A DNA stretch of 62,461 nucleotides, the filler included, from Rhabdomonas costata (lineage: Eukaryota), in the NCBI GenBank assembly GCA_019059605.1. It is 29 parts of 29 records of this genome, joined end to end, with 100 filler letters (N's around TTAATTAATTAA, not from the genome) between each part and the next. Parts side by side here need not be neighbours in the genome. Positions count along the whole stretch, not along the records: positions 4,319 to 6,377 come from JAHMHO010006007.1; positions 6,478 to 8,536 come from JAHMHO010006008.1; positions 8,637 to 10,695 come from JAHMHO010006009.1; positions 10,796 to 12,853 come from JAHMHO010006010.1; positions 12,954 to 15,012 come from JAHMHO010006011.1; positions 15,113 to 17,181 come from JAHMHO010006012.1; positions 17,282 to 19,339 come from JAHMHO010006013.1; positions 19,440 to 21,497 come from JAHMHO010006014.1; 21 more parts are not named here. The stretch is one strand, 5' to 3'. Positions within the stretch are counted from its first letter, which is position 1; each line of letters starts with the position of its first letter. Positions 5,611-57,523 of the stretch are shown here, piece by piece. The position numbers and the translations under genes were made by a program. A model generated the notes under the pieces. It saw only the letters and a list, made by a program, of their open reading frames with translations, did not search any database and had not been told where the DNA came from.

Positions 5611-6145
5611 ATGTGGTATGGTCGCCAGGCTGCGGGCGGAGGTTTTGGGGATGAGGTCCGGCTTTGCCCTGTCGAGCTTCCGCCCGCTGCCGAGAGTGCT
5701 GGCGCAGGGCAGCCCCCGGTTGACGTTGCCCTCGCCGCCGCCGCAACATGCAGCGTCCACGCACGGTCGGTGGGCACCACGCGCAGTGCCAAGCGCCGGT
5801 GCGTCACGCTCACCCTGCTGGTGGCGATCGCCCTGTTCAACTACATTGACCGCCAGGTCCACCGATTTCGTTGGCAAAAAGAAATGTTGGGAGTACGGCA
5901 CGGTGTGGTTTTTCAATTCTCCAGATATGTCGTTCAGCATGGTCTTCGCTGCGACTCAGTGTTTCAGACGCTTGTACCCCATTTGAGAGAGAGAGAGAGA
6001 GTGTGTGTGTGTCTATCTGTGTTTGTGTGTATGCAGGGCTTTGCCGAATATGACTACTGGGTGGATGTCTTTGCAGGTTCTCGCTGCTGTGGTGCCGCGG
6101 ATTCAGACCGAGTTCGGAACATCGGACGCTGCTACCGGAATGCTG
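5611..6145 (+). CDS. Spinster-like MFS transporter, N-terminal exons (5611-5856 and 6077-6145)
   Basis: TLTLLVAIALFNYIDRQ|VLAAVVPRIQTEFGTSDAATGML is the MFS TM1 NYxDR motif plus loop 1, joined across an in-phase GT-AG intron. Confidence 0.85.
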
Positions 6146-6171
6146 GTACTGATTTGGATTCTTGTTTCATA

Positions 6172-6271
6172 AGCTGTTCCCTTCCCCCCGGGACTTCCAC
6201 TTGTTGCGCCGAATGCAGGCACGCTGTTCCCTTCCCCCCGGGACTTCCACTTGTTGCGCCGAATGCAGGCA
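6172..6271. repeat. Tandem duplication of about 50 bp in an intron
   Basis: gctgttcccttccccccgggacttccacttgttgcgccgaatgcaggcac occurs twice back to back. Confidence 0.9.
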
Positions 6272-6682
6272 CATAACATATTGCAGCTGTCGGTCAGCTG
6301 CAATATATGTAACCAAGGTTCAGCCATTCGAATTGGTAGCCTGAATCCCGAGGCCACGAGAATGGTGGCACTCAAATNNNNNNNNNNNNNNNNNNNNNNN
6401 NNNNNNNNNNNNNNNNNNNNNTTAATTAATTAANNNNNNNNNNNNNNNNNNNNNNNNNNNNNNNNNNNNNNNNNNNNGGGTTTTTTTCGAACAGGCATTG
6501 ATTCAGTTGGCGTATTGTTTTCTATTAATTGCACACTCAGCCGAGCGAATCAGCTGATGCCGACCGTGAGAATCCGAGGTCGAGCATGTTCGCGCGTGCC
6601 ATAGTAAAAATGGCATGTCGCCAAATTCCAATAAGGAGGTGAAAGGACAGGGAAGTGCAGCAAGAGGTTGCGCGTGCTTCCT

Positions 6683-6830
6683 GCTATATATAGCAGGCTA
6701 CACCGTAAACTGAGAGTTTTTAACCACGGCACACCACAGGATGCCGCGAAGGACCACCGGCATAAATAGAGGCTAATAAGACTTCTGTTCGAAATGTCAC
6801 ATACTAAATTCTCAGGGTACTCGGGGTTAC
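6683..6830 (+). repeat. Dispersed repeat family A (also 12010-12115, weaker near 30870-31140)
   Basis: tatatagca.gctaca.cg.aaactgagagttttt...gatgccgcgaagga...aagacttctgttcgaaat.tcac is shared between contigs. atactaaattct also occurs near 31018. Confidence 0.8.
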
Positions 6831-9737: not shown

Positions 9738-10248
9738 GCTGCGTGCTCAGGGCGTTCTGCGCAACTTCCAGGCCTTCCAGTAAAAGCGCATTCTGAGGAT
9801 CGTAGGCTAGCCCTGAATGCCACATGTGCGTGTGCACGAGGGAGGGTGTGCGAGATACGGAGGGTAGAAGCCAAAGGCGCCCAACGCAGGTAAACACTTT
9901 GTTGAGTACCACAACATAAAACAGGGGTGGTATAAGTAGAAATGCACCACACGCTGGAAGGGCCCTGCCTTGCTGAGCAAAGGAAGCGAATCCCCACCGC
10001 TGCCTACTCGTTCAGAAGGATTTAAGTAAAACCACTCAGAAACTCGAAAGATGGCTCGAAATATAAAAGGAGGCATCAAATCCCACTCACTGGAAGTTCC
10101 CTATTATTCTGTACTTGCGCCGCAAACGCTCCAGCCGATTTCCGATTCGATCACACATGGAGCGCAAAGCCGTACCTTCACGATAGGCCTGAATGGCCTT
10201 GTCCAGCTCCTTGCATCCCACCAGCGCAGCCCCCTTTCGAGAGTATCC
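9738..10248 (-). CDS. TPR-domain protein (STI1/SGT-like TPR), exons 10176-10248 and ~9738-9812
   Basis: GYSRKGAALVGCKELDKAIQAYREG|LAYDPQNALLLEGLEVAQNAL is a TPR repeat plus capping helix, joined across an in-phase intron. Confidence 0.8.
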
Positions 10249-19466: not shown

Positions 19467-21290
19467 CTACGTCAGCTTAGTAGTGCCCACCCTGCCTGTG
19501 TAGCGGGAAGTGTCACGACCGATGAACTCCCCGGAGCGGGCCCATTGCGGGAGGGCCTTCCCCGCCGCCCTCCACCGCTCGCTCTGCAGCTGCTTGCGGT
19601 GCATCGACCGCACCACGCCTCGGGTGTACTCCGGGCGGGCGTCTGCGGCACGGGGCATGGGCACGCTGGGGATGTGGTCCAACGCGAACGAGATTGCCAC
19701 CGTCTCTAGGTCCAGCGCCGAGGCCGGAAAGAGCTCCTTCAGCTTGTGTCCTGAGAAGGAGGGCGGGTGGGACTCCAATAACTCCCCGTCCCTACCTTGT
19801 CCCTTCGCTCTGGAGCAAAAACCCGTCAGGTCAGTGAGCTGGGCCTTTTCCGTGTCCCACAGAGGCGGCTTTTTTTTTGACTGGACAGAATAGCACCCAG
19901 GGATGCTGACGGGTTTAGACCCCATCAAAGTCCCATCTGCCCCTCAAAATTTGTCCATGAAACCATGAAAGTTCGAACACCATGACAAACGCGGTTGGAC
20001 CGAGGGACAACAACAACCATATAGACACCCTTTTCAACACAACGGCAGGGAGATTGGACCAGAGTCATGATTTCCACAAAAAGCGCAGAACGTATGGATG
20101 GCGTTAATCGCGCGAATGAAACGTGCAGGACGTCTTCGGGAAGACAGGCGCATTTCAGAGTCGTTTAATACGGATGGGGTCGGGCATTCTATTGCCGTGA
20201 AAGGCTACAGAGGAATACAGAGAATACAGCGAGAATCGAGGCAGCCACGCAGTGTACCTCGATACGCCGCAACGAACGCTCGAAAAGCTCCTGTGCAAAG
20301 AGAACGGCGTGAGGGAGAAGAGGGTGAGGGGGTGAAGGCCTAGTAAAGCGTTCCGTTTACCCATATTTGACCCCCACACACGCTCTCTCTCTCGCTCGCC
20401 CCCTCCGTGCCCATCCAAACACCTGCAACTGTGGAATCGACTCAGCCCAAGCACACGAGAAATATCACACAAAACTCAAAAAACGTAATCGTTCGGTGTT
20501 ATGTCGGAGAATAGGGGGTTTGGGAGCATTACGGCTGAAAGGGAGAGGAAAGGGCCACTTGATAGGGACGTCATTCTTCCAGCCAAAATCCAAGGCTGGC
20601 AGTTGATAGGTCGGTGGTTGGGAAGAGGTGACACACGGATGGCCGACTTCTGCAGGCGGGGGTCCTCCGTAAGCATGGCCTCCAGCTTGAGCTGCAGGTT
20701 AGGTACGGGGAACGGGGTTTTGTACTCCTCCAGGGTCAGATGATGGCGGCCCAGGTAAGTCAGGAAGGCCTTCTCGCAGGGGTGAACGAACAGCAACGCC
20801 GCCTGGGTCGCACCGCACAACAACCACGGGGTGGCGGTGGGAGAAAGGAAAGCCAACTCCTCCATGTTTTCCATTCAGAAGAAAACAAAAGGGGAAACAA
20901 GCTGAGGGAACAAGGCAAGATGGCACCGCTGCACCACGGCCGCTCAAAATGCCCAAGGTAAGGCGCTGCTCTAGTTCAGCTGACCCCTCTTCTGCGACCT
21001 CTTCGCTCATTGAGTATTACTTTCCTTTGCATGCTGTTGCACTGTTGTCGAACACATTCAGGTATTCTGAGGGCAAGGCCATTATTTCAGCCATATGAAT
21101 CAACGTATGCCACACCTCTATGAGCACGACGGGGTGGCGAAGGGGGGGAGGAGACACCAACCCACCAAACCACCCACACAAACCCCGGTGGCCCCCATTC
21201 GAGCCGTTCGCCCCACACGGTGGATGTACTCGTTCACATCCAGTGGAGGGTCGAACTGCACAATCCACTCCACCATGGGGATGTCCAGCC
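19467..21290 (-). CDS. HAS1/DDX18-family DEAD-box RNA helicase, last four exons (21184-21290, 20637-20802, 20258-20290, 19467-19750)
   Basis: [27 protein letters not shown] (motifs V-VI), [34 protein letters not shown] and [10 protein letters not shown] match the HAS1/DBP4/SPB4 C-terminal domain. All junctions are in phase. Confidence 0.9.
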
Positions 21291-22337: not shown

Positions 22338-22384
22338 ATCGTTAGGATGAAGGCACCTCTGGCCCCACGCCAACCAGGTATTCA

Positions 22385-22415
<31 letters not shown>

Positions 22416-23758: not shown

Positions 23759-24897
23759 GTGGATTTTCCCAATGTTCGACGACAGACGGGTCAGCATGAG
23801 GTCCGCAAAGCTCAGCCGCCCGTACCGCGAGCCCTGCCGCAGCAGGGTGGTCAGCCAGTAAAACACCACGGTGTGCCTGTTCGACGAGAGCTCCGGGTTG
23901 CGCAACACCCTGACCTCTGGGTGGGTAATCAGCCCGTCTGCGGGCAAATTTGCCAGCGGGGCATCATCATCCCCGGCCTTCTTGAAGGCCCGCTGGGCCT
24001 CGAGAAGCAGCAGCCTTTGGCCCAAGTTGCAGTACCGGACCATCTCTTGGCGGAGGTGGGCCTCGGGGCTGGGGTCAATCTGGGTAGTCTTACCCGTGCC
24101 AGGGGTTCCGATCAGGCTGGCAGCCATCAGGGAGAGCTCCTCCGACCCGCTGAGCATGGCGTTGTACTTCTCCCTCGCGGTCCACCACCGGTTGATCACC
24201 AGGGTCATCGCCATACCCAAAAGGAAAGTCACCAGGTTCTGAAGGTTCGAGGGCTCAGCAACCTTGCGAAGCATCTAAAACCCACAGGACAGCACCCAGG
24301 TATACCCACGTGCAGCCAGCATCACAACGAGGCGAAGAGAAACATACCAACAAAACCAGCATTGGCCTGTCGGTAACTACCGAAACTATCACGGTGATCG
24401 AAAGTAAAATGCGAATCTCCCCGGGGATGAACACAGCAAGGGAGGGGACTCTGCCCCGGAAGAGAACAGAAGGTGAGGCACCTGTGAGGTGTTGTTGTCC
24501 GTGAATCCTACCCAGGCCAGCCAGCCGCACCAAAACACCATCTGAAAGATAAACGTTGGGCTCTCCAGGATGGTCCCCCTCCACCATGGCGTGATCGGGA
24601 TGACAGGAAGGATGCTCAGCAGGTGGGCCTTCCATGGGAGGTACTTGTAAACCCTAAGGGGCTGGAAGTGCAGCAGGGTTCCGGCCCACTTCGCCCAGAG
24701 GCTCCCGCTGCGGAGGAACCTGCTGTCGTCGTCGTTGGCGGCCCGCACTGCAGCAGCGTTGGAGGGCGAGGGAACGGAGTTGACACTGGGAAGGTCCGCG
24801 GCTGAAGGGGCACTGGATGGCTGCCGAATGATGGAAAGGGTGTGCCGCCAGAGGTCTGTGACATAACGCTCCGTGGGAAAGTGGAAGGCACCATTAC
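23759..24897 (-). CDS. Bestrophin-family channel (exons 24482-24897 and 23759-24274), truncated
   Basis: WRGTI, LVTFLLGMAMTLVINRWW, RQEMVRYCNL, GLITHPE, VVFYW and GRL appear in bestrophin order. The intron is in phase. Confidence 0.88.
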
Positions 24898-26957: not shown

Positions 26958-27947
26958 ATGTCGCATCGTGTGTTTGTGTACGGCACGCTGATGTTTGATG
27001 GGGTGCTACAGCGGCTGCTGGGGCGCGTCCCGGAGTCCATCAGACCCGCCACGCTACGGGGTTGAGCCTTGCCACCCGCCCCTTCCGGTGGGCTTCGTTT
27101 ACCTTCCTTTCTCTTCTGATAGCCATAGGAAGGGATATGTATATGGCGTACCTGCACTAGCTCGGCGCACAGAGGAATACGAAGGATCACCGTAGTCCAC
27201 ACTTCTTGATGCACTGTAACAGTTAGTTAGAGTAAAAATGGCTGTAAAGTGGAGGTAAGCATCGCTCCCTAACCCTATGAAACTTGCTGGGGGGGCTCCG
27301 CCCATACCTTCATCAAAAATATGCCGGGCTAGTGCAGGAGCGCCATATATATTACACCCCCCTCTCCCGTCACTATTCAACTTTTGAATGGTGGCACTAC
27401 TCAGTGCCTGGGTGGTGGGAACATAGGAACAGCTCCAGGTTCCACATTGTTGGCTCTGATGGCTCCCTTCCGGTCGTCGTCCGTTGAGCACTGGAATGGT
27501 TCTTCGCTCTGTCCTGTGTTGTTCTTCTCGAGCTTGCCAGCTGCGTCGGTTTGGGTCAGAAGTGCGCATGAAACTGCATCTGTCCGTGGTCGTTACGATG
27601 TAAGTCATCTCCTATTTAGATGTCAGTGCTGCCCCTGCGTAGAAGGAAGCCGCGCTTCCTCCAGCCATCAGCCATCGGTTTATCGGCACGTCATCTATTC
27701 ACCCCCCTCCCCCCCGAGGGAGAATTAGATCCTCATTCCTGTCCCTTTCGAATGGAAGGGTTTCTTATTGGCGTTGGTCCACCCCAAAGGGTTTCGGAGG
27801 CATCGGCTGCGGGGCTTGACATACCCCGGGGTGCTTGCAGACCCCTCCGGGGTAGTGGAGGGGCGTCTTCTCGTCGCCTTGACCGATGGGGAGCTGGGCC
27901 TCCTGGACACCTTCGAGGGCTCGGGGTACGACCGGCTCTCCGTGCAG
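26958..27947 (+). CDS. AIG2-like gamma-glutamylcyclotransferase (exons 26958-27060 and 27790-27947)
   Basis: MSHRVFVYGTLM...LLGRVP...ATLRG|FRRHRLRGLTYPGV...VEGRLL..LTDGELGLLDTFEGSGYDR carries the GGCT FVYGTL and LD.FEG..Y motifs. Confidence 0.92.
27139..27350. mobile_element. MITE-like insertion in the GGCT intron
   Basis: Imperfect terminal inverted repeats of about 27 bp (tatatggcgtacctgcactagctcggc / gccgggctagtgcaggagcgccatata), with TA at both outer ends. Confidence 0.7.
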
Positions 27948-32378: not shown

Positions 32379-34330
32379 GTGTTGGGTGTTGGGTGTTGGT
32401 GGAAATCACACGGAAGAACAGACGCACAGGCCATTTTTCACAGTTTCCGCCTTGCTGGGCAAATGGCCTGTGCGTCTGTTCTTCCGTGTGATTTCCACCA
32501 CATTTCCATTAGTCTTGTGCTACGCCTACACAAACCTTGGGTGGATCGTAGAAAGCGCCAAGTTCAGACAATATCCACGCGTATGACGTATTACAAATGA
32601 CTGGAAGTCTAATCAAATCCCAGGCAGAGGTGCTGCATCACAAGGAAACAGCGGAGCAGAAGCCCACACGAGTCGAAGTTGCTTCCTTACCATTGACATC
32701 AGGTGAAGATTCATACAGAGGGAAGGCATACCAAGGCAAAACAGACAATGCAGATGCCCACTCGCCGATTTGGCAAATTCCTCACTACCACAAGAGATTT
32801 TTTGCCACCTCTCCAGATGATGCCGAGTAACTCTTCTATCGAAATTGCCAGCATATTTCTAGCGTAGCAGATCCAAAGTTAAATCCAAGAGAAGACGAAA
32901 GCTGTACCACACCGATAGTTGATATGCTTGACTTCAAAAACCACGACTAAATCTGTGGTCCTCAGCGATGCAAGGCAGACGTGCCTAAGGATGTCATTGA
33001 ACTCATTCAAACGTTTGCTCATATCTTTACATACAAGATGCCACCAGGTCTTTACCACTCCCGGGCTAATGATAACAAAATAGACATTGTGAATGAAGCC
33101 AAAAGTTCCGGCTCAACGACTATACCACATGTCCCACTTGAAGACCAGGAGTTGTAAAAGTAAATGAAGGAACTAACTGATCTTAGATTATTGAACGCAC
33201 CGTGTCTCCTTACCTAGCAGTCATTCTTTTGCACCCTAAGCCAACTGAAAAGTTTGTGTTGGCTACCAATCTTTGAACGCAATCACTACATTAGACGCGT
33301 ACCACTTCAGATGACTGATGAAATTATTGACCAGGTGATGAAAGCTTGCTACTTTACCAAGATTGATCTCCACTATGGTTTTCACCAAATCCTCGTGTAA
33401 CCAAAGCATGTACATGTCCCTTAAGACTAAGTATGGCACGCTTCACTACCAGTTCATGCCATTTTGGTTGTGTAACGACCCATGTAAATTCTAAATAACT
33501 ATGGACTTTGTCATTTACGATCTCCGTGCCTTACATTGACTATGTGCTAATCTTCACTAAAGCACGTGATGAACATCTGCACGCCATCAGACAAGTGTAC
33601 GAACGACTTGAAAAGAACCATATCTTTGCCAACCATGAGAGCTTCTCTTTCTGTCAACATGACGTTTATTACCGCGGTTTCATCGTGGTACACGAAGGTG
33701 TCCAGAAAACTGGCAGCAGTAAACATTTTTCCAACCACTCGTAACCAGGCTGATGTAGAAAGCTTAGGAGTTTGTGGTTTCTACCAAATTTCTATCCCCA
33801 ACTAAGCTACCGTTGCAGCGCCATTAACGGATATAATGAAGAATCAAAAAGATTGCCAGTGTGGTTGGAAAGAAACCAAAGCTTTCGAGAAGCTCAAACT
33901 CCGACTCATCAAACACCACGTTATGGTTGTTCCAGATTGATTTGTCCAAGCCACTTATTCTCCACACTGACGCTTCAGAAAAACACTATCACAACACGAC
34001 GACAAAGGAAACATACGGCTTGTTTCTTGCCTATCTCTGTAACTTCCCCTCAGAAAAGAACTACACGGTTCATAAAAAAGAAATGCTAGTATTGGTGGTT
34101 TCTCTAGTAGCACGTCTTTACTACCCACTGGGTGCCAAAGTGCACGTCTACAACAACAACTACGCACTAAGGTACGTGCAGAAAAGCCCCACTCCATGCA
34201 TTTATACAAATCAGATGGTCAGAAAAACTACACTCGTTTTCGATCAAGATCACCCACATGCCTTGGAGAGTTAACTCAGCCGCTGATTAGATGTTTCAGG
34301 AACCGATTAATGATTCAGTGATATTCAGTG
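32379..34330 (+). mobile_element. Degenerate Ty3/gypsy LTR-retrotransposon pol (RT and RNase H), with many stops and frameshifts
   Basis: FTKIDLHYGFHQI, KTKYG..HYQFMPF, YIDYVLIF (from YxDD), EHLHAIRQV, LGVCGFY, ILHTDAS and EKNYTVHKKEML. Confidence 0.93.
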
Positions 34331-34623
34331 TTCTGATTGCATAATACACTAAAAAGCCAACTCCAGTCTACTTTTGCGGTCCTGTCTGCGCGCCCATACA
34401 GATGCAAACATGCAGAATACTGGATCAACAAACACNNNNNNNNNNNNNNNNNNNNNNNNNNNNNNNNNNNNNNNNNNNNTTAATTAATTAANNNNNNNNN
34501 NNNNNNNNNNNNNNNNNNNNNNNNNNNNNNNNNNNGTTTTTGTGGTCCCTTTTGATTCACACACCGAAAGCAACAGGGACCACAAACGAAGCAACGAGAC
34601 TCCGACTAAAGAGGCAGTCAGAC

Positions 34624-35565
34624 CAGACTCCGGCAGGCCTCGTCGGGGAGGTTGTTGCCGCTCACCGTGAAGGAAGTGAGTTGGGGCTGGAGTGCAGGGC
34701 CAGTGCCAGCGCCACTGCGGCGCCCGTGTCCATCCCGACCCGGTCGAGGTTCAGCGAGGTCAAGGAGTGGGTCTCCTTCAGCGACGCCGCCAGAGTAGTC
34801 ACCCCTTCCGAGCCTAAGAGGCGCCACAAAGCGGTCGGGCGTTTTCCACTGCAAGAGTGCCTCAGTTGATCATCCAGAGTCGTCAGGATTCTTTGCGGCA
34901 TCTAATACAGAGAAGGCAGTTGACACAACTGCTAAAAGTGCTCTTCGGGTATACCGTAGGTTGGTATAGGTCCTTGCTTTCTCAGAAGTTTTCACACAGC
35001 CCCCGAGCTTCCCGCGGATCTATGCATCTCTGCGTGAACGTCCCCGAGTCCTTTCTCCGCAATGAGGACGCGGTGGACTATGCCACCCGGTAGTACTGCC
35101 GTCTTGTCGGTCAAGCTGTATGACGATAGCACGTCCCCCAAAACATCCTGAAGTGATCTTGGGTATGGAGAAGTGGGAGCAAATGCATATCCGTGACTCC
35201 CCAGGATTGAGTTTCCCAACTATACAACAAGGACTCTAAACTATCACCTTTGACGAGATCACTGTATTCGACTTCTCGGGGTTTGCACTCAGCTTATGAG
35301 TGTCGCCTCCAGCTTCTTGTTCTTTGCTTTTGCTCTATCCTAACCGAGATATCTGCTTATTTTTTTCCACGCCGAGAAAACCAACATTTAGGTGGAGAGA
35401 GGGGGGGTGCTGACCGATTTGGTTGCAGTCGATCTGCAGAGTCTCCAGGAAAGGGCACGTCTGAAGAAGACCGCAAATGGCATCCATCGACTTCGCGGTT
35501 AGACCTGAAAGATACCAAGCCCGCACAGCTTCGCTGGCAGCCACAAACCATACTTGACCCCCCCT

Positions 35566-35596
<31 letters not shown>

Positions 35597-36524
35597 CGAA
35601 ACCATCCATGCACGTTCGCACAACCTCTTGCGACCCAATGACCCAGTGCAAGGCCAGCAGGAAGGGTTGAAATCTTCTTCTCACTTTGGGGTTTGTGAGT
35701 GTCAGGCATAACCGGGCGAAATCCAGTCAGAGAAAAAAGCACGGTAAATACCAACGTTTGAAAGGTCGAGGTACCGCAGGTTGGCCTGCTCCGCCAGGGC
35801 GCCCAAAATGGCCTTTGTCCCGTCATCCTCGAGCAGGTTGTCAGAGAGATTGATTGTCCTGAAGCACACCACCGCCATCGAGATGAAAACCCTCACCTCA
35901 ACGGGTGCCCATGACTCACAAACGGCTTGCGACTGGTGTAGCGCTGTACGTGGTATTCATGTGCGGGAGCTGAGCCGGCGGTTCTGAGCGGTGGAGCATT
36001 ATGGTGGCGGGTGTGAGCACCAGTTCAGGTTTGCACAACTCACCACCGCTGAAGCGGAAGAACGCTTATGGAGCCATCGCGTGAGGTGGGTGTGGCAATT
36101 GACCTTGCCGCCTCAGTCCCTGCAACTACAGGCAGCTGCAATCCCACCGCAAAAAAAAGGCCTTTCCCCATAAAACGGAGCGGTGTTCACGTAATCATTC
36201 GTAATCATGACGTCCCCGGTTATTGAGAGATAAAGAGATCGAAGTGAGATCATTGCCGAACCTCAGGTTAATCCGAAAGAGGCGCTCTCCAAACTCCACG
36301 GCATGGCTGGCGTTGATCAGGTTGCTCTGCAGGTTGAGCTCCATCAAAGTGCGGTTCTGCGCCAGCGCCGGGCCGAAGTCCAGCAGCGCCGAGCCCACCA
36401 TGTTGTGAGAGAGGCTGAGGGTCTGCAGGGAGGTGTTGCTTCCTAGCATCCGGGCAAAGGCCCGGGCGCCGGCCACATTAATCTCGTTGCGGGACAGAGA
36501 GAGGTGCTGAAGGGTAGAGTTCAC
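34624..36524 (-). CDS. RNI-like leucine-rich-repeat protein (exons 36262-36524, 35752-35858, 35415-35504, 34624-34813)
   Basis: Roughly 28-aa repeats LxxLxLxxNxI/L with in-phase junctions. One apparent 1-nt frameshift at ~34683. Confidence 0.88.
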
Positions 36525-39005: not shown

Positions 39006-39403
39006 GCGCACCAAGCAAACCTTTTCGCCGACCTGGTCCCTTTCACAATGGACAAGGCCGCGACTCGTGTGGAGGCCACGTACAGCGAATCCCGCTGCAG
39101 TATGCTCTCCTGTGGAGTGTCACTTCGCCGCGTGGGGATGACAGTGGAACTCTCTTTCCCGTGCACCCGTTGATTCTGAACCGAAGCGTCAATGCATCTG
39201 ACTGTGCCAGTCTCTCTCACCATCTCCCTATATCACTTTTAGACGCGGACTCGCACTCACACAATGTCAGTAAGCAGCTCTCGTCAAGGCTACTGACCAT
39301 CACACTCTCTTGAATCTCGCACATGCACAGGTTTACAAGCTCAAATGGCTGAGTACAGCATCTCCACATTAGGCTGCACATTGCTCTCTCGACTTACCCG
39401 CAG

Positions 39404-40782
39404 GCAGCACGATCTACCACTTTGACAAGTGGGACCGCTTCGCGGTCGTCAACGTGTCCTCCCCAAAGCTCTCCACGGTGAAGATCATGCGCCCCGAGGA
39501 AGGACTTCCCGTGGTCGCCGTGGTGAACCCCCCGTGCCGCGTCTTGGTTGCCGAGCACCTGGACGCGGTGCACCGCCTTGCAATGGCCACCAACGAGGGC
39601 CTGTCCTTCACCCCCCTCTCCACACATCCTCGCGGAAATTTTGCCAACAAAAACTCACACGCCCACTCACGCATGTCGGATCAGAAGGAGAGAAGAAGTA
39701 GCGTAAAACGGAGGACCGGAACAGCAAGGGGATGGGCAACAGGGGGGAGAGGCGCCCGTGTAACTGGTGTTAGATGGGCGTTACACGTTTAACGCGTCTA
39801 ACGGACATCGCCAATTCCCATTGTGACACTCGCGAGAGATACGTGCTCCCTAGGATTCGGTTAGAAGCGTTGCAGGGGGTTAGGAGGCGATGCACCATCG
39901 GTATCTCGCCCGTTAATCAAATTTGTTTCGATCAGGCCAGCTGATCTTTTACGAGGACGCCCGGCTGGACCTCCACGGCAGACCGTTGCAGCCCCGGAAA
40001 GCCTGCCGGGTGAACTCCGTGCCGCTGTGCCTGCGGTGGGACGACACTCACCAGAGGCTGTTTTGGGGCAACCGCGCTGGAGAGATTATGGTGCCTGTTC
40101 CAGTGCAACCCCCTTCATACAGTGCAAACAATAATGTGACATGAAAGTTGCGTGGGCCGATTGGTTGTGTGACTTGGTTCAGTGATTCTTTCTATAAAGT
40201 GCGCTACACCGTGAACTCAGAACTGCACTAGAGCGCATTGCTAAGTTCAAACCTGAACTTCACGTTCCCCTCACCAAACAAAATGTGCGCAGACAACGGC
40301 ATTTGTATGGGGTAACAAGATTTTGAATGGAAAACCGACACGCACACACCATTTTCTGAGTTTGAGGGTGTAATTTATCGTAATTATCAAAAAAAAAAAC
40401 GTTTGGTGAAATGATGGGATTCCGCGTTTTGCAACGGCAAGAATTTGCAGAAAAAATCCAGGGTCAGGCTGCTGCTCAAGTGAGGTGTGGTTCCAGAACG
40501 TTGTTAGCCGGCTTGCTTCGAAGAATGTTGGCAAAGCGTCAAATTTACTTGGAAACATGCCCGAATGCGAAACTACAAAACTATGGCATAACACCACGCC
40601 AAACAGATCCGTTGTATTCTCCGTAGGGGATCCGGTACACCGACGACCCCGACCTCTCCAGACATACAATACCAGCTCACGCCGCACAAGGGGCCCGTGA
40701 TGGACATCTTAGTGCTGGACCGGATGCGCTGCATCGTTACCGCCTCGCTGGACAGCACCGTGAGACTTAGCGCAATGGACAA
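39404..40782 (+). CDS. WD40-repeat protein, internal exons (39404-39598, 39936-40090, ~40627-40782)
   Basis: HKGPVMDILVLDRMRCIVTASLDSTVRL and LFWGNRAGEI are WD40 strands. The first intron appears to be GC-AG. Confidence 0.75.
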
Positions 40783-45530: not shown

Positions 45531-47342
45531 GCACAGGGAGGAGCTTGCTCAAATGCAGGCCAAGGTGGAGCAGATGGTGCGAGAGCACGAGGAGGTAATC
45601 CGTGACCTGGAGACCGAGAATACCACCCTCCGTTCTCAGCTCAAGGCCCAGGTCAGTTGGTGATGTCTGTGTGTGAGTGTGTGTGTGTGTGTGTGACCTT
45701 TTTCATCTCTTCCCCCTGCTTGATGGTGAGAAGTGGAGGATGTTGAAGGTTTCTGCAAAGTTCTTTTGCTTCAAAGGAACCGCGTTTGATAGCTGTTCAG
45801 AGAGTTCTTTGGCGGTGATGGTTGTGGGATCAAATGTCTCTCTGCGTTGCATACTCCCATCATGCATGTGGCGGTGACCCAAAGAGGCACCGCTTTTAGA
45901 ATTTGTGTACGTGGTTTTTGTTTCCTGTTTCCTAATGGGATTGAAAAGAACCACAAAAAACGTCACTTTGACCACGTGCACAAAGTGTGCTGGTGGCCCG
46001 CGTGCTTGTGCTTCTTTCTTTCTACATTGCGCTTGCGAGCAGGATCGTGAAGGCAAGCTTAAAGAAACTAACACCATGATGAAGCGCATCTCTGATGGTG
46101 TGCACCTGTGGTGCGATGTGGTTTTTTTGTGGGGTGCTGGGGGCGCTGAACGATTTTCAGTTTTTCGGAGATGAACGGTAAGGTGCAAAGCTGGGTCATT
46201 GTCCTTACAGTGCCGCTCCCGGGTATTTGAGACACGATTTTGGACGGATCACCCTCCCCTCCTCAAGTTCACTGGTGAGGACGTGCGCACACTACATATC
46301 ATCACGTATTGAAGAAACATCAATGCTTTGTCTCGCATTGGATGACATTGGTTGAGCCCTGAAACTTTCAGAGGACTTCTTTGGTCTTTGAAAATCCTAG
46401 ATCCTTGAAATACCGACCACTCACCCGTCCTCATCCTCATCCTCATCCTCATCCTCATCCTCATCCTCCAATCTCACCCTGTCTTGCACCCATCGATCCA
46501 TAGAGTGGGCGGCGCGCTACACGGCGCTGGAGGGGGAGCTTGAGGCGCTTCGGCCAGCCCAGGCCGAGCTACAGGAGCAGCTGCAGCAAGCCCAGCAGCA
46601 GCTGCAACAGGCCCAAGATCAGTTGCAGCAGGCGCAGGCGCAGGTGCACGCCATCCCACCTCCGACGCTCACGGCTGTTCCTCGGGATGGGTCCCCGCTC
46701 ACTGAGGGCAGCCCAGTGGACATGACAAAGGTGAGCGTCTTTTCATTGCTTCATTTTCGCTGCCACTGGGCCCCTTTTCTCCTTTTTGTTTTTGCGCTTA
46801 TTACAAAGAAGCCATGATACCTGTCTCCAAAAAGTGGAGAAGACTTGCTTGGGGTTTTAAGGACGAAAAATGGGGATTTGGCAGTTGGTTGTGCTGCGCG
46901 TCTGGCGCTTGCAGGACGGCTCTCCGGTTGAGGCCTCTCCCACGCAGCAGCTGCAGTATGTGCTGTGCCAATCGCTCCCCACATCCAGAATAGAATTATC
47001 CACGCCACCTCAGGAAAGTGAACGTTTCAAAATTGCCGTAAATATGCGTTTTTTCCTTCCAGGTGGTTAATCCGAGAAGTTCGAGGGAGGGTTTGCGAAC
47101 ATGTTTCAATCATTTTCAAACAAAAACCCTTTATCGCGAATTCGCCAAATTATTATATCTGCTATGACTCTTTTTTGACATCACCCGAGCTATGCTTTAC
47201 CCCGTTTCGTTTCTGTCGATAGTCCCCCTTTCCTATTCTTTTGTGTGGTGAAAAGCTCTTCTTGGTGAAAAAACGCCACAGGGCCAAGGAAGAAGAGATC
47301 AGAAAGCTCAAGAAGCTGCTCAAGAAGTACCGCAAGACAGAG
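45531..47342 (+). CDS. Coiled-coil protein, five exons (45531-45651, 46043-46097, 46504-46730, 46915-46955, 47282-47342)
   Basis: All four GT-AG junctions keep frame. Heptad-rich peptide EELAQMQAKVEQMVREHEEV...LQQAQQQLQQAQ...AKEEEIRKLKKLLKKY. Confidence 0.8.
46428..46468. repeat. (TCATCC)n microsatellite in an intron
   Basis: About six tandem hexamers are directly visible. Confidence 0.9.
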
Positions 47343-48175: not shown

Positions 48176-48733
48176 GCCATTGTCAAGATTCGGTGGGCCT
48201 GCAGTGGTGGGAATGCATCTTTCCAATTTCGGTGCCTAACTTGGCTTCTCGCGACTACTTTGTCCTGACTTTTCTCCGGTTCGATCCAGACTGGGAGTCA
48301 GCCCTACCCTTCGCAGCTTCAGGATTACCGCTGAAGCGCAGTCATGGTGCCGCCACTGCTGACCATTGTTTAGACGGAGTCGTTGTCCTTCACAGCTTAT
48401 GATTGGGTGGTCGTAACTCTCATTGAAGGCTTTGAAGGGTATGCGTACTGGGCTACGGAGAGACATTTTGAATCGATTGTGTCCAAGGCAACGGGCATCC
48501 TTTCGCATGGCTGAAATTTGTTGGTTGTGTTTTGCGCGAGAGTTGACTCGCACCTGTTTCGTCTTTGCGGATGCTGAATTATCCTTTCAGGTGAAGAAGA
48601 GGGAAGTGTGAAGCGGAGGAAGTTGTATCCCAATCCAGTACCCTTTTGTTTCATTCACTGTGCAGGTTTTTCTTTTTGTGTCGCCTTTGTTGATCAACGA
48701 AGGCGCTGTGGGGGGGGGGGGTTGTTTTACAAG

Positions 48734-49532
48734 GTCACTACCCCTGGTTTGCGATGTATAACACCCTGGACGCCTCCCTCCCGAAGTTCGAGAACGACCG
48801 CATAAAGAAGCTGCTGCGGAACGCGGGGATCGGGTTCTGCTCCTCCGCCGTCTCCGATACCGTCAGCAACTCCCTGCGAGTACTGAAGACCTACCGCCAG
48901 ACCTCCGCCTCGACGGTGTCGTACCTTCAGGTGTTGTCGTTTGAGTGATTACGCACCCAACTTTCATCTTCGGTTTTGATCGGTATTTTGATGTACGTGA
49001 CCCGTAGAAATGAGGTTGCTTTGCCTATGGATGGAAGGGTTTTGCGTTTTGCATCTTTGGGCATCAGTACTCAGTTTTGTTCTGGCTGGCTTGGAATTCT
49101 TTGAAACGACCCAAGGGACCAAAGGAAATTCTTGCACTTATGGCTCTTAAACTGGAGCCAACAGAGCTATAGGACCCTCCTTGGGAGCACCCAGGCTGCG
49201 CGCGTCTTAGATTTGGGCCATCTTTTCTTCTCTTTCCTTCTTTCCATCATCTTTCTCCTTTATATTGTGAATGTGTGTTTCTTTTCTGTCTTTACATCAC
49301 ACAACCATACACGAACGCGAACAAACAGACACAACTGTCCCTAACTCAGAGAAGAAAACCATTGAGTTGTCGTGCCGATGGCGTCAGGGGGGGATTTTTT
49401 TCGTGGCGCAGTCCGCGAGGACCATCATCGCCTCGGACGGCCTTGTGGGGCTCTTCGGGCGCGGGCTGGCCACCCGGATTATGGCCAACGGGATGCAGGG
49501 CATGATGTTCTCGGTGCTGTGGAAGCACTTCC
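48734..49532 (+). CDS. Mitochondrial-carrier-like protein, C-terminal exons (48734-48930 and 49412-49532)
   Basis: [12 protein letters not shown]...[28 protein letters not shown]...|[34 protein letters not shown] is a recognisable atypical carrier subfamily. Confidence 0.85.
49163..49358 (+). repeat. Dispersed intronic repeat family B, about 190 bp (also 57872-58060 and the 3' half at 51518-51600)
   Basis: Shared agagcta.aggaccctcc.tg.gagcacccaggctgcgcgcgtc and ttttctgtctttacatc...gaacaaacagacacaactgtccctaa.tca.agaa. Confidence 0.92.
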
Positions 49533-49740: not shown

Positions 49741-50686
49741 GGTTTGCGTCGATGTGTGAGACCGCGCTACCGGATCACCTGGTAAGGTTGACTACGGAGT
49801 ACTTCCAGGCGATGTGCCGTGAGATCGCCTCTACTGGGGGAGTTCTGGACAAGGTACCCTTGCTTGCGGCCCATCCGCCCCAGTTCGATGCTGTATCCGT
49901 TGAATGTAAGTATGTCGCCGTGCACTTTTTTCGCCGCCTCCCTACTCCCACCTCCTCCCCTTCCCCGCCTGAGAAATAGAAAAGGGAGAGGTGAGATGGA
50001 AGTAGAAGGGTGAAAGTGTTTCGCTGCCCCAGCTTCGGCTGGCGGGACTAAGGGCGATCCTTTTTTTGGCCCCCGTGGCCTCTTGCCAATGCAAGTGTGT
50101 ATGTGTTGGCAATATCCCAAAGCCTCACTTCTTTCGGGTGTACGTCTACGTATCTGTGAAGTCAAAGCAGTTCCTCCCTCTCAAGTACAGCTTAGCGTTG
50201 TGGGTCGGGAGGGGGGTGGGTGTTGCTAAAGCTCTTTATTGGGATTGAGACCCAAAGGTTCGAACCGAAGTTTGGCGATGCTCGCTTCGTTTCGGATTTA
50301 GTTTCTGTGCAGTCGTTGACAGGCTCTGTAACGCTTGGGACGCTTCTTTCACAACGCACCCCCTTCACTAGCCCAATGCTTGTGATGATGATGACTTAAT
50401 CGGTAGCATTCCAAAGCCTTCCTCTTGGCTGAATTTGCGGTTGCCCTTATCCCCGAAGCCTCACTCCTTTCGGGTGTACGTCCACACATTTGCGGAGGAA
50501 TGGGCGGGTGCGGGTGCGGGTGCGGGTACGGGCGCAGCTGATTGGGGATTGTGTGATGGCACTGTGGGGGGTGCCGGCGCGGCTGCCGGGGCACCCCACC
50601 GCAGCGTGCCGCGCGTCGCTGCAGATGCAGGCCACCCTGGTCACCCTGAACCAAAGCTGGGCCACCGAGGGCATCCCCCAAGTCAG
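49741..50686 (+). CDS. Class III adenylate/guanylate cyclase catalytic domain (exons 49741-49853 and 50538-50686)
   Basis: GFASMCE...LVRLTTEYFQAM..I..TGGVLDK|LIGDCVMALWGVP...HPTAACRASLQMQ..L..LNQSW. The Lys before IGD suggests ATP specificity. Confidence 0.92.
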
Positions 50687-52236
50687 GTACCTGCTTCCCC
50701 GCTCCTCTGTGAAGATGTTACCTTTCCTGTCTTCATCGCAAGCTTCGCTACTGACAAGACTTCGGCATACTCCTGCTGGCTGACGAAGCTCATATCTCAC
50801 CCAGGCCTTTGCCAGTCCCCAAGTTTCACCGGGGGGAGTTCTATTATTTTTCGGGGCCCAGTGATGCCCTCACTCACTATCATGCTCCTCGAGCAAGGCC
50901 AGCGTGTAAACCATGGAAATGGATTCGAGCCGAGCCGTACGGATGGGAGCCTAGCCGAACCGTGTGTTACTACCGTTCACTCTACTCAGCAGTTGTTTGT
51001 GCCGAAGTTGTTTGTGCGAGTGCCCTGTTTTCTGTGGTTCTGTACGTTTCCAGGTTTTCCCGATGCATGCACCACGCTGTGAATTCAACCAAAATCACGC
51101 ATACCTTTTCGCGTGGCGTTGTTTTTGCTTTTCTCCACCAAATCCTCTTTGCGTATGTGTGTGCCTGTAATATACTTAATGTAATCGGTTGGTCAGTGAC
51201 CTCTCAGTTACTTTTGTGGTTTTACCTTTCTGTGAATTTTAGGGCTTTCTCGTCCCATTCTTACACCCCTGAACGGTGCCACGGCTGATGCTTCCCGCAA
51301 CGGGAAAAATTGGACCTGAGGATTCCACGCAGAAGTAGTGACGCAGAAACGCTTCCGTGAAAAGGCTCAGACGAGCTCAGAGAACCCTTTTCAACTCTTG
51401 GCCGTGGTTTAATGCGCCATAGAGGTTTTCGGGACCTTCTTCTGGAACTAGAGGGGTCATTCGCATCCCGAAAAACTCTCTCCTTCGCTCTCCTTCTCGT
51501 GTGTGTGTGTGTGTGTTGCTTTTCTGTCTTTACATCGCACAAACATACACAAACACGAACAAACAGACACAACTGTCCCTAAGTCAAAGAATAAAACAGG
51601 AAGCTGCAAGCGAATTAAAAACCCAGGAGGGAGTGTTTGAGCTGTGCGTGGTTCGCCTGTCTGCAATATTCCATACAAAAACCNNNNNNNNNNNNNNNNN
51701 NNNNNNNNNNNNNNNNNNNNNNNNNNNTTAATTAATTAANNNNNNNNNNNNNNNNNNNNNNNNNNNNNNNNNNNNNNNNNNNNATTGGTTTTGGGCGCTA
51801 AATCTGCGTTGCGGCTTCTTTTACCTTTTCTCTGCTATTCCTCAGAATCTTTTCCGCAAAAATGGTGCACTTCAGATGCGCTTTATATGGTTAGCTTTCC
51901 GGGCGAGTTGTCCGTATTTTTTGGGGGGGATTCTGCTGCACCCAGTGAGAGACTGATTCCCAAAGCAACTGAAGAAAAAGGTCGGAGCCCGCATCTCCAT
52001 CCGCCAACATCACCGTTCCCCTGACTGTGGGTTCAGGGAAGTCTTTGTAATCTGCTGCTTCTTTTGTACCGGGGCCCACCGCCGGTTTTCTGTTCTTTTT
52101 CCCCTTGTGGGGTTTTTCGATGCTGTCGTGAAGGCGCCATTTTAGAAACAATAGATATAATAAGGAAGTCAATTAGCAGAAGAAAGGCAGTTAGACCCCT
52201 TTTTTTGCCCGCATGATTCCTTGCAAATAATCGCAG

Positions 52237-53513: not shown

Positions 53514-54244
53514 GTGTGAGGGGATGGTCGCCTCCTTGGCACGTTTGTCTGAATCTTTTCGCGGCGCCATCCCCGTTAGCAACTGTGGAAGACGGATCTT
53601 GCAAAGTTGTGAGCTGGACGAAGGTGCCCGGGCTGGAATGTTTTCGCTGGGTTTCTCATCATTGCGTGGAATTCTCAGATGAGATGCCCGAATCCAGTTT
53701 TTTCGTGCCCACGTCAAAAATGACAGCTTTGCCCAGCGTCCAGGGTATAAGTTTTAAAGCGGGTTGGAGCCGCGCTAGACGTTTAGCACGTGTCTAAGGG
53801 ACATCGCGCACCAGGCCTCACAACCAGCAGCTCATGCGTNNNNNNNNNNNNNNNNNNNNNNNNNNNNNNNNNNNNNNNNNNNNTTAATTAATTAANNNNN
53901 NNNNNNNNNNNNNNNNNNNNNNNNNNNNNNNNNNNNNNNGTTGGTTAGTTCAGGGCAGGAGTTTGGGGGAACACTCCTGGTGTTGGGTAAGGGTCTCGTG
54001 GGCTTCCAGGTGGAATCTTTTGAACCTGAGTGTGAATCTGGAGCAGTGGAGACTGAGATGATGGTGAGTGGTTCATAGATTTGGCCGGCTCCTTCGTTTT
54101 TAATGAATAGGGTTGCGTGGAGTCTTCGTAATCTTCGGCGCTGCTGTGTGCATGTCGGCTGCAATGGGCATTCAATGGCGCTTATAGATGGTTCATAGAG
54201 TGTGGTTCGCCCCATTATTTCTGCTATATGGCAGTGTGATTCAG

Positions 54245-55800
54245 ACGCGAGTGAGTGGGCTCTGGGCTTCAGATGGGGCAGAGCCAGCGGCTGGGGCTGC
54301 TGTCGGCACGGGCGTGGGAGCGCGAGGCGGTTGTTCTGGAGAGACTGATCCGAGAGGCCCCTGTGACCCACCCCAACTCCGCCACAAGCCACTCGGCAGA
54401 TCTGGCCAAGGTCTGCTTCTCGTGCTGCCTTCGTTTATCAATAATACGCGCAACGCGCATGCAGGATTGGTTCTGCACATCGAAATGAATGGCCCATTCC
54501 CATCTGTTTTTGAGTCTGGTAACTTCAGGGCGGTAGTCTCTGAATTTCCGGGCGCGACAGAATGTCGTACTTCGCTGAATCGTACGTATTTTGCAGAGAC
54601 ATGCACGCAGCTTTCGATTCCAACAGAGGTTTGAGAATAATTTTGGAGGTGTTGTGTGTGCAACGGTCGCTTCGCATGTTTGTGCACAGCGGGGGGATTT
54701 TCTTATTGTCTTACTATCGTTTGATCGCACTATCCGATCGCTGTGGTGTGCGACATAGCCCGAGGACCGTCGTAGTGCGGCCGTGGGTGCGCTGCTCCAC
54801 CCAATGGAGGCCGTCTCTGAGCATCTCTGCCGGGAAGAGTACCTTAGTGGGATGCAGGCCCTTGCCCAGGCCGCAGAGTACGTGCCATCGACCCCACCCG
54901 CAATTTTCAGCTTCCATTGCCTTCAGCCTCCTGCGCGTTTGGAGTGGAAGGCGGCATTGCACGTTCACTATGACCAGACCTGAGAGTTGGGGGGTTGGAG
55001 ACTCGTGAATCTGCGCATCTTGGAATTCCGTAAATATTGCTCCCGTTTGTTCCTGTGGTTGACTTTTTTGAATTTTCTTGTCACCTTTAGAGCAATATGG
55101 ATGAAATTTGGGCAGCAATTTGGGGTTTACGGTCCCGTTTCAGTTGAACGTGAGGGTTGTCCGTTGCCGAGACCTCCGGGTCATATCTTCACCCACCAAA
55201 GGGTCCTTGGGCTTCACCTCATGGGCCGACACTCTGTACCGCATTTAGCTTCTCTGGCACGCACTGTGACGTCACACGGAAGGGTTCACCACAAAAATAT
55301 GCCTTTCATCGGCGTGCCTTGCTCAAAGCGGGGCAGCATTTGCGTGGAAGTAGCGCCTGATGAGGATTCCAGCCGCCGCTTTGCAAGCTCGGAGCTCGGG
55401 TGTGTCGTCAAACGGGTTTCCAGCGGCGTTGAGGCTGACATTGGCCAACAACAGCTCATCAACAACGGAATGGACGCAGAACGCGGCGAATTGGAGGAAG
55501 AAATCACTTGCCCCAGTGTGATGTGTGCCGTGGGTTTTCAGGCCTGTGGCCCGGGCGGAGCTTCTGCGGACTGTGCTGCAGGAGTACCGCTCTCGGGCGA
55601 TTGGTCCCTACTCCTCAGCCTTTGAGCAGCTGCTTGTTCTGCAGCAGCACCTGCTGCTGCGATCTTCTTCAACTGGAGGCGGGCTGAGCCCCTCCACGGC
55701 CGACACTCCGACAGGGACCGCTGCGACGGCGAGGGAGTCTTCTACGGAGCATAGCGGCACTGCTGCGGAAAGCAGCCCTGGCGCGGCGACCCCTGTGACG
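54245..55800 (+). CDS. Probable exons of an unknown helical protein (~54245-54410, ~54760-54880, ~55542-55800)
   Basis: GC-rich open stretches next to AG/GT sites. Family unrecognised and boundaries uncertain. Confidence 0.4.
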
Positions 55801-56221
55801 TATACACACATATGCACGCACATGTCAAACGTACGGCGGCTCCTCCCCCGTGAGCACCCGTGTTCAGCAGGGTTTGTAGAATTAACTGCAGGCATTCAGG
55901 CACAACAGTGACGCAGTAGCAGCAGCAGCGCACTTTGTGCCTCAAAAAACACACACGCACACACACACACAATGCGCCCAACACACACACACACCNNNNN
56001 NNNNNNNNNNNNNNNNNNNNNNNNNNNNNNNNNNNNNNNTTAATTAATTAANNNNNNNNNNNNNNNNNNNNNNNNNNNNNNNNNNNNNNNNNNNNGGGAC
56101 AGGCTGTTCATCGTGTTCGGAGAGGAGGGGTAGGGAAGACGGGGAGGTGGTGGTACGGGAGGTGCAATAATAATAAGGGGACGAAAAAGGAAGGACGGTT
56201 GTGAAGAAGAACGGGCTTCAG

Positions 56222-57523
56222 GCCACTGTGGACATGCTGTGGAACCGCTACTCTGGCCTGAAGCCCGTTCTTCTTCTCAGCCTCTTCTGGAGCTGCCAGG
56301 TGGGTTGGGTTTCCTTCACACCATAATCATCTGCGGATCCTCTCAGTGCAATACGTGCCAACTCATGAGTTCAAATGATCGTCCCTGAAGTGGGAGTCGG
56401 CACTTCCTCCTCCCGCAATAAAGAACTGGCGACGCACCAAGTCTGCGGGTGATTTCGAGCCCTCTCCGCGATATTTTTTTTCCGGTTTTTTCAACACTGG
56501 CACCCCGTTTGTTGGGGCATGTATAGTTGCATGGAGTGTTTCTTGATTCTCTGTACTTTCATCTTTTTCAGATTTCAACTGAAAAATTGAAAAAATTCTT
56601 GAAAATTTTGGAATCTGGAATTCGGATTTCGAGCTAGAATTTTTCCATGAAGTTTTCTCCTTCTCTCTTCTCTTCTCTCTTCTTATTTCTTGTCTTTTTA
56701 TTTAGGTGTGGAAGAACATCGTGCACGTGGCCGTGGCAGGTACCGTGGCGACGTGGTACTTCCTGTGCAACAACATGCCTGCGTGGCCCACTGCGGGTGC
56801 GGTGCGCCGCGCCACCACCACCAGCCTAGGTAGCATCTGCCTGGGCTCCTTGTTTGTCTCCCTGGTGCAGCTCACCCGGGCCGCGGTCCAATCAATGGTG
56901 GCTCACCCTCACCCCCTTGCCTGTGTGTGCGTAAGGATCCAAAAAGGTTCAGAAGTCCCGTGCTCTGGCGAAGAGCGCCACGGTTGGGCTCTCCGTGGTC
57001 AGAAGAAGATGACATGAGAATCCTAGACAGAAGACTCAAATAGATTCCTCCCAGTCATAAGCAGACTGGACGAGCACAGAGGGTTGGAACTCCCTAAAGC
57101 CGCGGTTTAATGCTCCATTGAGGTTTCCCAAGAACAACCGTCCAGCCCGTGAAGAGCTCACACGCGAACGTGGCCAGACAAAGAGAACCGCCGTTGAAGA
57201 GCACATTTGCCGGTGCACCGGATAATGACATGTGCAGAAAGCAAGCTGAAACGCACTGCTTGATCCTCTCGTTGTTGGCTGTTGGAGAGTGGATGCCAGG
57301 TGTTGAAGCCTCGGAACACATTTCAATTTTGTAGAATTTACTTTTATAAAGAGGAAGAAGACGTTACCTTAGTTCCGGAGGGGGGGGGTGAGGGGTCGCT
57401 CTAAATTCTCTTTTTTTTCTCCAGAGGGGCAGCCGTAACAGCTTCGTGGCGATGTGCCTGGATTGCTTGCTGGGCTTTGTGGACTCCCTGATGCAGTACT
57501 TTAATGAGTACGCCTACTGCCAG
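56222..57523 (+). CDS. Choline-transporter-like protein (CTL/SLC44/PNS1), exons 56222-56299, 56706-56897, 57425-57523
   Basis: LLLSLFWSCQ|VWKNIVHVAVAGTVATWYF...RRATTTSLGSICLGSL...CLDCLLGFVDSLMQYFNEYAYCQ. Confidence 0.93.

Follow-up and report, generated by a model that had tools for sequence, protein, structure and literature searches.

How the conventional and nonconventional introns of Euglenozoa relate to one another is an open question, and one on which stems closing the ends of otherwise canonical introns would bear. For the 62,461-base window analysed here, the original prediction proposed that GT/GC-AG introns in several of its genes have a 5' end complementary to sequence just upstream of the acceptor, that such pairing may juxtapose the splice sites, and that it may offset a weak splice-site consensus. 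We asked whether the ends of the 23 introns catalogued in the window pair beyond chance, in which introns and at which positions. As a tendency of the population, complementarity between intron ends exceeds chance modestly but robustly, and some of the individual examples bear it out.

Intron ends are predicted to pair more stably than swapped ends

The catalogue comprises 22 GT-AG introns and one GC-AG intron, 135-848 nucleotides (nt) long, and a GT/GC-AG register exists in all 23. Borders of eight complete introns are fixed by the EukProt proteins P0001, P0012 and P0013 (tier 1), those of a further 12 were set by reading frame and family conservation (tier 2: adenylate cyclase, MFS, three helicase, three LRR, bestrophin, mitochondrial carrier, GGACT and TPR introns), and the three introns of a coiled-coil gene were drawn ab initio (tier 3).

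In the main test the first 30 nt of each intron were paired with the last 60 nt using RNAduplex, and true donor/acceptor pairs were compared with swapped ones to give a permutation p-value. Both window sizes had been set beforehand by the original prediction, which staked itself on true pairs being the more stable. They are, at -19.6 kcal/mol against -15.9 kcal/mol for swapped pairs over all 23 introns (p=0.0003), and the difference is also seen in tier 1 (8 introns, -19.1 against -13.9 kcal/mol, p=0.004), in tier 2 (12 introns, -20.2 against -17.8 kcal/mol, p=0.038), in the two tiers together (20 introns, -19.8 against -16.3 kcal/mol, p=0.0009) and in the 18 introns that had not been flagged in advance (-16.9 against -14.8 kcal/mol, p=0.019). 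Alternative windows applied to all 23 introns gave p=0.024 (20/40 nt) and p=0.0006 (40/80 nt). Comparison with dinucleotide shuffles, also foreseen by the original prediction, agrees, with a mean z of -1.16 (t-test p=0.0015) and z below -2 in seven of the 23. When each whole intron was scanned for the strongest partner of its first 30 nt, this partner fell in the last 60 nt in nine of 23 introns where 4.9 are expected (p=0.03).

No excess appears in any of five positional negative controls (p 0.42-0.67), which paired the upstream exon with the last 60 nt, the first 30 nt with the downstream exon, nt 31-60 with the last 60 nt, the first 30 nt with positions -120 to -61, and the first 30 nt with nt 41-100. 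Regional composition is therefore not the cause, and covariance of composition between a locus's two ends is ruled out by these controls together with the shuffles. When whole introns are folded the ensembles are bimodal, with at least 14 expected end pairs in 8 of 23 introns and almost none in most others.

Pairing in individual introns

The measures quoted for individual introns are the RNAduplex energy (kcal/mol), the dinucleotide-shuffle z, the fraction of swapped pairs that equal or exceed the true one in stability (swapped share), the place of the terminal window in a ranking of partners for the 5' end (rank), and the number of end pairs expected in the whole-intron fold. Introns below are GT-AG and on the plus strand unless stated. 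All the complementary strings quoted in the original prediction are present in the sequence, and its borders are confirmed where independent proteins allow a check (CTL, WD40).

Four introns lie clearly above chance. In intron 2 of the choline-transporter-like (CTL) gene (56898..57424, 527 nt, border by P0001) a 5' arm at 56898-56926 faces a 3' arm at 57375-57400 around a perfect 11-nt complement (56906-56916 with 57384-57394, 11/11), predicted originally and recovered by a repeat finder too; the duplex energy is -39.2, with z -4.6, a swapped share of 0.02, rank 1/88 and 21.3 expected pairs, and by eye the 3' arm is followed at once by a CTAA-type motif. A competing donor, GTAAGG at 56931, is in frame and has a better consensus but is ruled out by P0001. 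The adenylate-cyclase intron (49854..50537, 684 nt, border by reading frame and cyclase motif continuity) has a 5' arm at 49854-49881 and a 3' arm at 50501-50530, the latter a G-rich (GGGTGC)n tract, giving a duplex of -45.6, z -3.3, a swapped share of 0.00, rank 1/119 and 24.9 expected pairs; the two predicted string pairs match at 6/6 and at 8/9 with one G:U. This intron is without a polypyrimidine tract (Y fraction 0.29). Its exon 2 aligns with residues 76-122 of PDB 1wc0, starting from the second residue of the exon, while exon 1 had no match in the PDB search, and the single cyclase and MFS exons were too short for Pfam. A 34-nt direct repeat of 91% identity also lies in this intron (50116-50149 and 50452-50485).

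The MFS intron (5857..6076, 220 nt) was delimited by frame and by continuity of what we take to be the MFS N-terminal motif. Its arms, 5857-5879 and 6039-6067, include the predicted match of 5857-5863 with 6060-6066 (six Watson-Crick pairs and one G:U, 10 nt before the exon), and the duplex of -21.1 has z -2.8, a swapped share of 0.07, rank 1/27 and 17.8 expected pairs. The incomplete second intron of the same gene contains a 49-nt tandem duplication (6173-6270). The fourth case, WD40 intron 1 (39100..39403, 304 nt, border by P0013), had not been flagged in advance: its arms at 39100-39129 and 39346-39378 form a duplex of -26.7 that no swapped pair equals in stability (z -2.7, rank 1/43, 21.3 expected pairs).

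Five introns are weaker or mixed. p28 intron 2 (58746..58956, 211 nt, P0012) has a duplex of -18.6, z -1.0, rank 1/25 and 16.4 expected pairs. The match flagged in coiled-coil intron 2 (46731..46914, 184 nt, ab initio) is there, with six Watson-Crick and three G:U pairs, but its strength is weak (duplex -20.9, z -1.0, swapped share 0.18, rank 1/19, 18.3 expected pairs); its neighbour, coiled-coil intron 3 (46956..47281, 326 nt, ab initio), gives -16.9 with z -3.25, rank 1/48 and 14.5 expected pairs. DEAD-box helicase intron 1 (20803..21183, minus strand, 381 nt, frame and end of Helicase_C) has a 5' end rich in G and T that faces a C-rich segment on the 3' side, and its duplex of -25.8 is matched by only 2% of swapped pairs but has z -0.6. 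For LRR intron 2 (35505..35751, minus strand, 247 nt, LRR periodicity and frame) the values are -16.9, z 0.1 and 15.2 expected pairs.

The GC-AG intron, WD40 intron 2 (39599..39935, 337 nt, border by P0013), was among the predicted examples, and its imperfect strings are present, but pairing above chance is not: 32% of swapped pairs are as stable (duplex -18.7, z -1.6, swapped share 0.32) and the terminal window ranks 29/50, with 2.2 expected pairs, its C-rich 5' end finding a better partner mid-intron. Five nucleotide registers (-1 to +3) give the same product here and GC-AG alone is canonical. In two introns the duplex values stand beside almost no end pairs in the whole-intron fold: p28 intron 1 (58435..58569, 135 nt, P0012; -15.6, z -3.0, yet 0.1 expected pairs) and helicase intron 3 (19751..20257, minus strand, 507 nt, frame and family conservation; -22.2, z -0.6, rank 1/84, yet 0.3 expected pairs).

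No end pairing appears in the whole-intron fold of CTL intron 1 (56300..56705, 406 nt, border by P0001; 0.0 expected pairs, duplex -10.1, z -2.35). None was seen in WD40 intron 3 (40091..40626, 536 nt, P0013, with one mismatched residue beside the junction; -9.5, z 0.03), helicase intron 2 (20291..20636, minus strand, 346 nt, CTE_SPB4 continuity; -5.6), LRR intron 3 (34814..35414, minus strand, 601 nt, LRR periodicity and frame; -9.8, z 0.5) or the intron of the TPR (Hop-like) gene (9813..10175, minus strand, 363 nt, TPR_1 positions 4-26 in exon a; -16.4, z 0.2). The remaining values are -14.3 and z 0.8 for p28 intron 3 (59044..59364, 321 nt, P0012); -16.6 and z 0.7 for coiled-coil intron 1 (45656..46503, alternative register 45652-46505, 848 nt, ab initio); -20.2 and z -0.6 for LRR intron 1 (35859..36261, minus strand, 403 nt, LRR periodicity and frame); -19.5 and z 0.0 for the bestrophin-like gene (24275..24481, minus strand, 207 nt, junction by alignment to the paralogue P0015); -17.5 and z -0.1 for the mitochondrial carrier (48931..49411, 481 nt, junction from the homologues P0016 and P0018); and -22.3 and z -1.8 for the AIG2/GGACT-like gene (27061..27789, 729 nt, with the Pfam GGACT profile split between exon 1, positions 1-31, and exon 2, positions 35-89).

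Location of the stems and their possible role

The 5' arm begins at +1 to +5, and in strong cases 8-30 nt separate the end of the 3' arm from the AG. The excess localises to the first 30 nt paired with positions -60 to -31 (p=0.013), while the first 30 nt and last 30 nt of the 23 introns show none (p=0.34). This arrangement suggests how a stem could act. The first ~30 nt would pair with a segment mostly 30-60 nt upstream of the acceptor, and the resulting long-range stem would close the folded intron and set the 5' splice site beside the region where branch point and 3' splice site would be expected. If the stem forms in vivo, it may aid the spliceosome by shortening the effective distance from the 5' splice site to the branch point. 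The proposal that pairing may juxtapose the splice sites is structurally plausible for a subset of introns.

On balance we favour, with the scales standing about level, the reading that roughly one third of these spliceosomal-type GT-AG introns carry an end-closing stem and are of the euglenid 'conventional/intermediate' type, with a geometry like that of zipper stems. A stronger claim, that about a third of canonical introns depend on a long-range stem from the 5' splice-site region to the branch region, and so make up a structure-assisted spliceosomal class bridging conventional and nonconventional introns, is one that we hold tentatively and would sooner doubt than accept.

Evidence against the stems and alternative explanations

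A number of observations weigh against end-closing stems as a feature of these introns. The effect is modest and driven by a minority, 14-15 of the 23 introns (~60%) showing nothing, and among the 16 unflagged introns of tiers 1 and 2 it is reduced to -16.9 against -15.2 kcal/mol (p=0.050). In whole-intron partition functions the true introns have 8.65 end pairs against 5.78 for chimeras carrying a foreign 5' end (8 swaps per intron), a borderline difference (Wilcoxon p=0.052). The terminal 10+10 nt, folded as 10+U7+10, show no excess of pairing (-1.67 kcal/mol for true and -1.59 kcal/mol for swapped pairs, p=0.40), with zero energy in 10 of the 23 introns. Nor does the pairing z correlate with polypyrimidine content (rho 0.01), match to the 5' splice-site consensus (0.15) or intron length (0.12), in a sample of 23 that gives low power; we accordingly set aside as unsupported compensation for weak splice signals as an explanation of the stems, and with it the suggestion that pairing offsets a weak consensus. 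The arms are often C-tracts facing G-tracts and of low complexity, the cyclase intron has further internal C-tract/G-tract inverted pairs, only 23 introns were tested, and borders are inferred for 15 of them. From the literature, homologous conventional/intermediate introns are described as sharing no common structural elements (PMC4770533), and GT-AG introns of E. gracilis are reported to be without terminal pairing (PMC11170887).

Several of these points are what would be seen if chance and low complexity, in a genome whose introns abound in C-tracts, G-tracts and microsatellites, yielded a few strong matches that combined with post-hoc choices to fake a tendency. Even swapped pairs have a stable mean of -15.9 kcal/mol, the cyclase intron has several internal C/G inverted pairs, the WD40 GC-AG example does not stand out from its swapped pairs, and the borderline whole-intron result and the small number of introns, 15 with inferred borders, point the same way. 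Against this, the window sizes were fixed in advance, the swapped, shuffled and five positional controls all concur, the excess holds both in the eight introns with protein-fixed borders (p=0.004) and in the 18 unflagged ones (p=0.019), and an 11-nt perfect complement stands at both ends of CTL intron 2. We consider chance an unlikely account of the whole.

To a similar degree we think it improbable that the pairing is a footprint of origin and has no role in splicing, the ends being either degraded terminal inverted repeats of introner- or MITE-like elements (MITE, miniature inverted-repeat transposable element) or leftovers of nonconventional introns that gained GT-AG borders. Introners with terminal inverted repeats do exist; Amoebophrya introns are described with 8-20 nt inverted repeats joining their ends and 3-5 nt direct repeats at their borders (PMC7789003), and interconversion of nonconventional and conventional introns has been proposed (PMC4770533). 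In the window, short direct repeats at the junctions let the borders of most introns slide by 1-5 nt, and a dispersed repeat sits in three introns. Yet such junction repeats can also be explained by the AG|GT exon/intron consensus alone. Self-BLAST over the 29 contigs found no sequence shared by the paired introns with each other or with the rest of the 60 kb, the 3' arm lies 8-30 nt or more inside the intron rather than at its terminus, no target-site-like duplication was seen by eye beside the arms of CTL intron 2, and the Euglena nonconventional code occurs in none of the 23. Within the 60 kb searched, a transposon origin of the paired introns is not indicated.

Very improbable is a hybrid class with GT-AG ends removed by the structure-dependent nonconventional machinery of euglenids, suggested by the 0.8% of E. 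agilis introns reported to combine both motif types with nonconventional-like pairing and possibly noncanonical processing (PMC12501133) and by the missing polypyrimidine tract of the cyclase intron, since the code 5'-N3CDG…CH'GN5-6|R is found in 0/23 introns in any register, the terminal 10 nt show no excess pairing (p=0.40) and the register of the stems differs from +4 to +6 with -8 to -6. Set beside these alternatives, end-closing stems of the conventional/intermediate type in about a third of the introns remain the reading that we prefer.

How the intron borders were set

P0001, P0012 and P0013 differ from the contigs by few residues, omit the intervening DNA and, in the case of P0001, ignore the fold-back of contig 27; we therefore treat them as independent, transcript-like evidence for the tier 1 borders. 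Profile continuity gives partial independent support in tier 2, from GGACT, CTE_SPB4, TPR_1 and the alignment of cyclase exon 2 to PDB 1wc0. Further proteins were sought using MAFFT alignments of five unrelated exons each as queries, with each member predicted to score 53-84 bits. One such query (A2) retrieved proteins for two of its five genes (p28 and WD40), and another (A3) one bestrophin paralogue and carrier homologues, with nothing for the LRR, helicase or GGACT genes; a further one (A4), in a search of representative proteins, gave one low-complexity match only. These searches retrieved no proteins for the cyclase, MFS, coiled-coil, helicase and LRR genes, and their borders are accordingly those given by frame and family conservation or, in the coiled-coil gene, drawn ab initio.

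The 5' splice-site consensus is weak, with G at -1 in 19/23 introns, G at +5 in 12/23 and T at +6 in 13/23, and resembles the GTGTG 5' splice site of E. gracilis (PMC11170887) in its G at +5.

Three side observations concern the tier 2 genes. On the minus strand, a C-run (~34680-34700) near the end of exon 4 displaces the LRR frame by one base, and the LRR pattern runs on in a different frame until a stop is reached, probably through an indel that arose in amplification or assembly. A G12 homopolymer (48709-48720) within the mitochondrial-carrier exon is a likely site of sequence error. About 540 nt upstream of the carrier exons, an open piece at 47987-48160 matches the NCA2 C-terminus in Pfam (E 6e-4, under the curated cut-off); the match may be spurious, or the piece may belong to a neighbouring gene.

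The window and its host

The window is not a single locus but 29 separate contigs of 2,051-2,069 bp each, joined by spacers of N44 + TTAATTAATTAA + N44 (e.g. 2060-2159 and 4219-4318). Strings of only G and T open many contig 5' ends and strings of only C and A close many 3' ends, and fold-back palindromes lie at or near several contig ends (38851-39005, 32397-32500, 36700-36776, 56197-56282 and 2018-2056). Together these look like products of degenerate-primer whole-genome amplification, the palindromes being probably amplification chimeras, and a draft genome of a heterotrophic euglenid made with a degenerate-primer amplification kit has been published (PMC8219788). In contig 27 the fold-back (56197-56282) replaces the true upstream coding sequence, and the contig diverges from P0001 before ~56225. 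Such chimeras were also considered as a source of the intron pairing and rejected, as they are long, near-perfect palindromes at contig ends and the intron stems are short and imperfect.

GC content is ~50% in the window and the coding pieces are rich in GC at third codon positions. Two contigs (32379-34435 and 60406-62461) have a lower GC content (43-44%) than the others, and an open piece of contig 16 (33840-34271) resembles, by eye, a retroelement RNase H region. Pfam, run on open pieces of the translated frames, identified fragments of Erv1-like, DEAD-box helicase, bestrophin, AIG2/GGACT, LRR, TPR, mitochondrial-carrier, CTL and axonemal dynein light chain p28 genes; an Rfam scan of the whole window matched no family.

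The best match of the CTL exon is EukProt P0001 (RCo043509, 449 aa, 97% identity), followed by Trypanosoma proteins at ~56% identity. The p28 exons match P0012 (RCo005457) and the WD40 exon P0013 (RCo052778, 100% over the exon), so that the CTL, p28 and WD40 exons agree with the EukProt RCo… proteins at 97-100% identity. The genes in the window are intron-rich, in contrast with those of kinetoplastids. From its sequence the host appears to be a euglenozoan, and most likely a euglenid. The notion of a new occurrence in an unrelated organism falls away with this, as the intron type is then the very one that had been cited as established.

A dispersed repeat is present at 49159-49357, 57868-58058 and 51504-51597, with a core of ~85 nt and 82-92% identity between pairs of copies. 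The copies sit in introns of the carrier, CTL and cyclase genes, which are unrelated to one another, and run in the orientation of the gene in each. The repeat has no Rfam match; no covariation is seen among its three copies, and their consensus fold is weak (-7 kcal/mol). It may be a MITE-like element or one resembling a short interspersed element (SINE).

Comparison with known intron systems

The closest parallel is with the conventional/intermediate introns of Euglena, which have canonical borders and a stable structure joining their ends and are described from few genes (PMC4770533), tubB intron 1 and gapC intron 1 among them (PMC3935182, PMC4770533). In PMC4770533 the authors judge such introns to be conventional, the meaning of the structure being unclear. 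As in those cases the host is euglenozoan and the feature is found in only some introns of a gene; canonical borders are present in 23/23 introns and a predicted end-joining structure in a subset only. The differences are that the Euglena examples come without a chance control, whereas here 23 introns were compared with swapped and shuffled controls, and that the host, going by its EukProt identifiers, appears to be a different euglenid. In the terminal 10+10-nt test our introns are as negative as the GT-AG introns of E. gracilis (PMC11170887).

Nonconventional introns likewise have their two ends base-paired in a euglenozoan host, but their borders are non-canonical and the pairing joins +4 to +6 with -8 to -6, whereas the introns here are canonical and pair in a different register. 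As the genetically defined code of nonconventional introns, 5'-N3CDG…CH'GN5-6|R (PMC12501133), is found in 0/23 introns in any product-equivalent register, they are not nonconventional. The noncanonical introns of hemistasiid diplonemids, as described in PMC12621601, are also euglenozoan with extensive end pairing; they are without GT-AG, have medians of 37-91 nt and pair in the terminal 9 nt, unlike the canonical introns of 135-848 nt that pair more deeply here. Amoebophrya introners are, by the account in PMC7789003, mostly non-canonical and partly in repeated families, and no family was seen among the paired introns in the 60 kb.

In geometry the stems resemble the zipper stems of long yeast introns (RPS17B, RPL7B and others), which run from the region of the 5' splice site to that upstream of the branch point and are reported to enhance splicing (PMC12311795; PMC2536676; PMC12350175). 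In yeast, branch points are known and mutation has shown the effect on splicing, while in this unrelated lineage the stem is predicted and the branch region presumed.

Should the stems define a structure-assisted class, the bridge between the two intron systems within Euglenozoa would be mechanistic and perhaps evolutionary, and the class would have escaped the published test of the terminal 10+10 nt, since its 3' partner lies 30-60 nt inside the intron. Should canonical introns of a euglenid prove measurably enriched in end-closing stems, in a register other than that of nonconventional introns, RNA structure would help splice-site pairing generally in this lineage and would not be a hallmark of the nonconventional machinery alone. 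The published view that the ends of conventional Euglena introns cannot pair would then need qualification; should the tendency fail genome-wide, these examples would be curiosities of C/G-rich introns. The intron type itself is already known from Euglena, and what is new here is that 23 introns were tested against chance controls and the partner of the 5' end was placed at -60 to -31.

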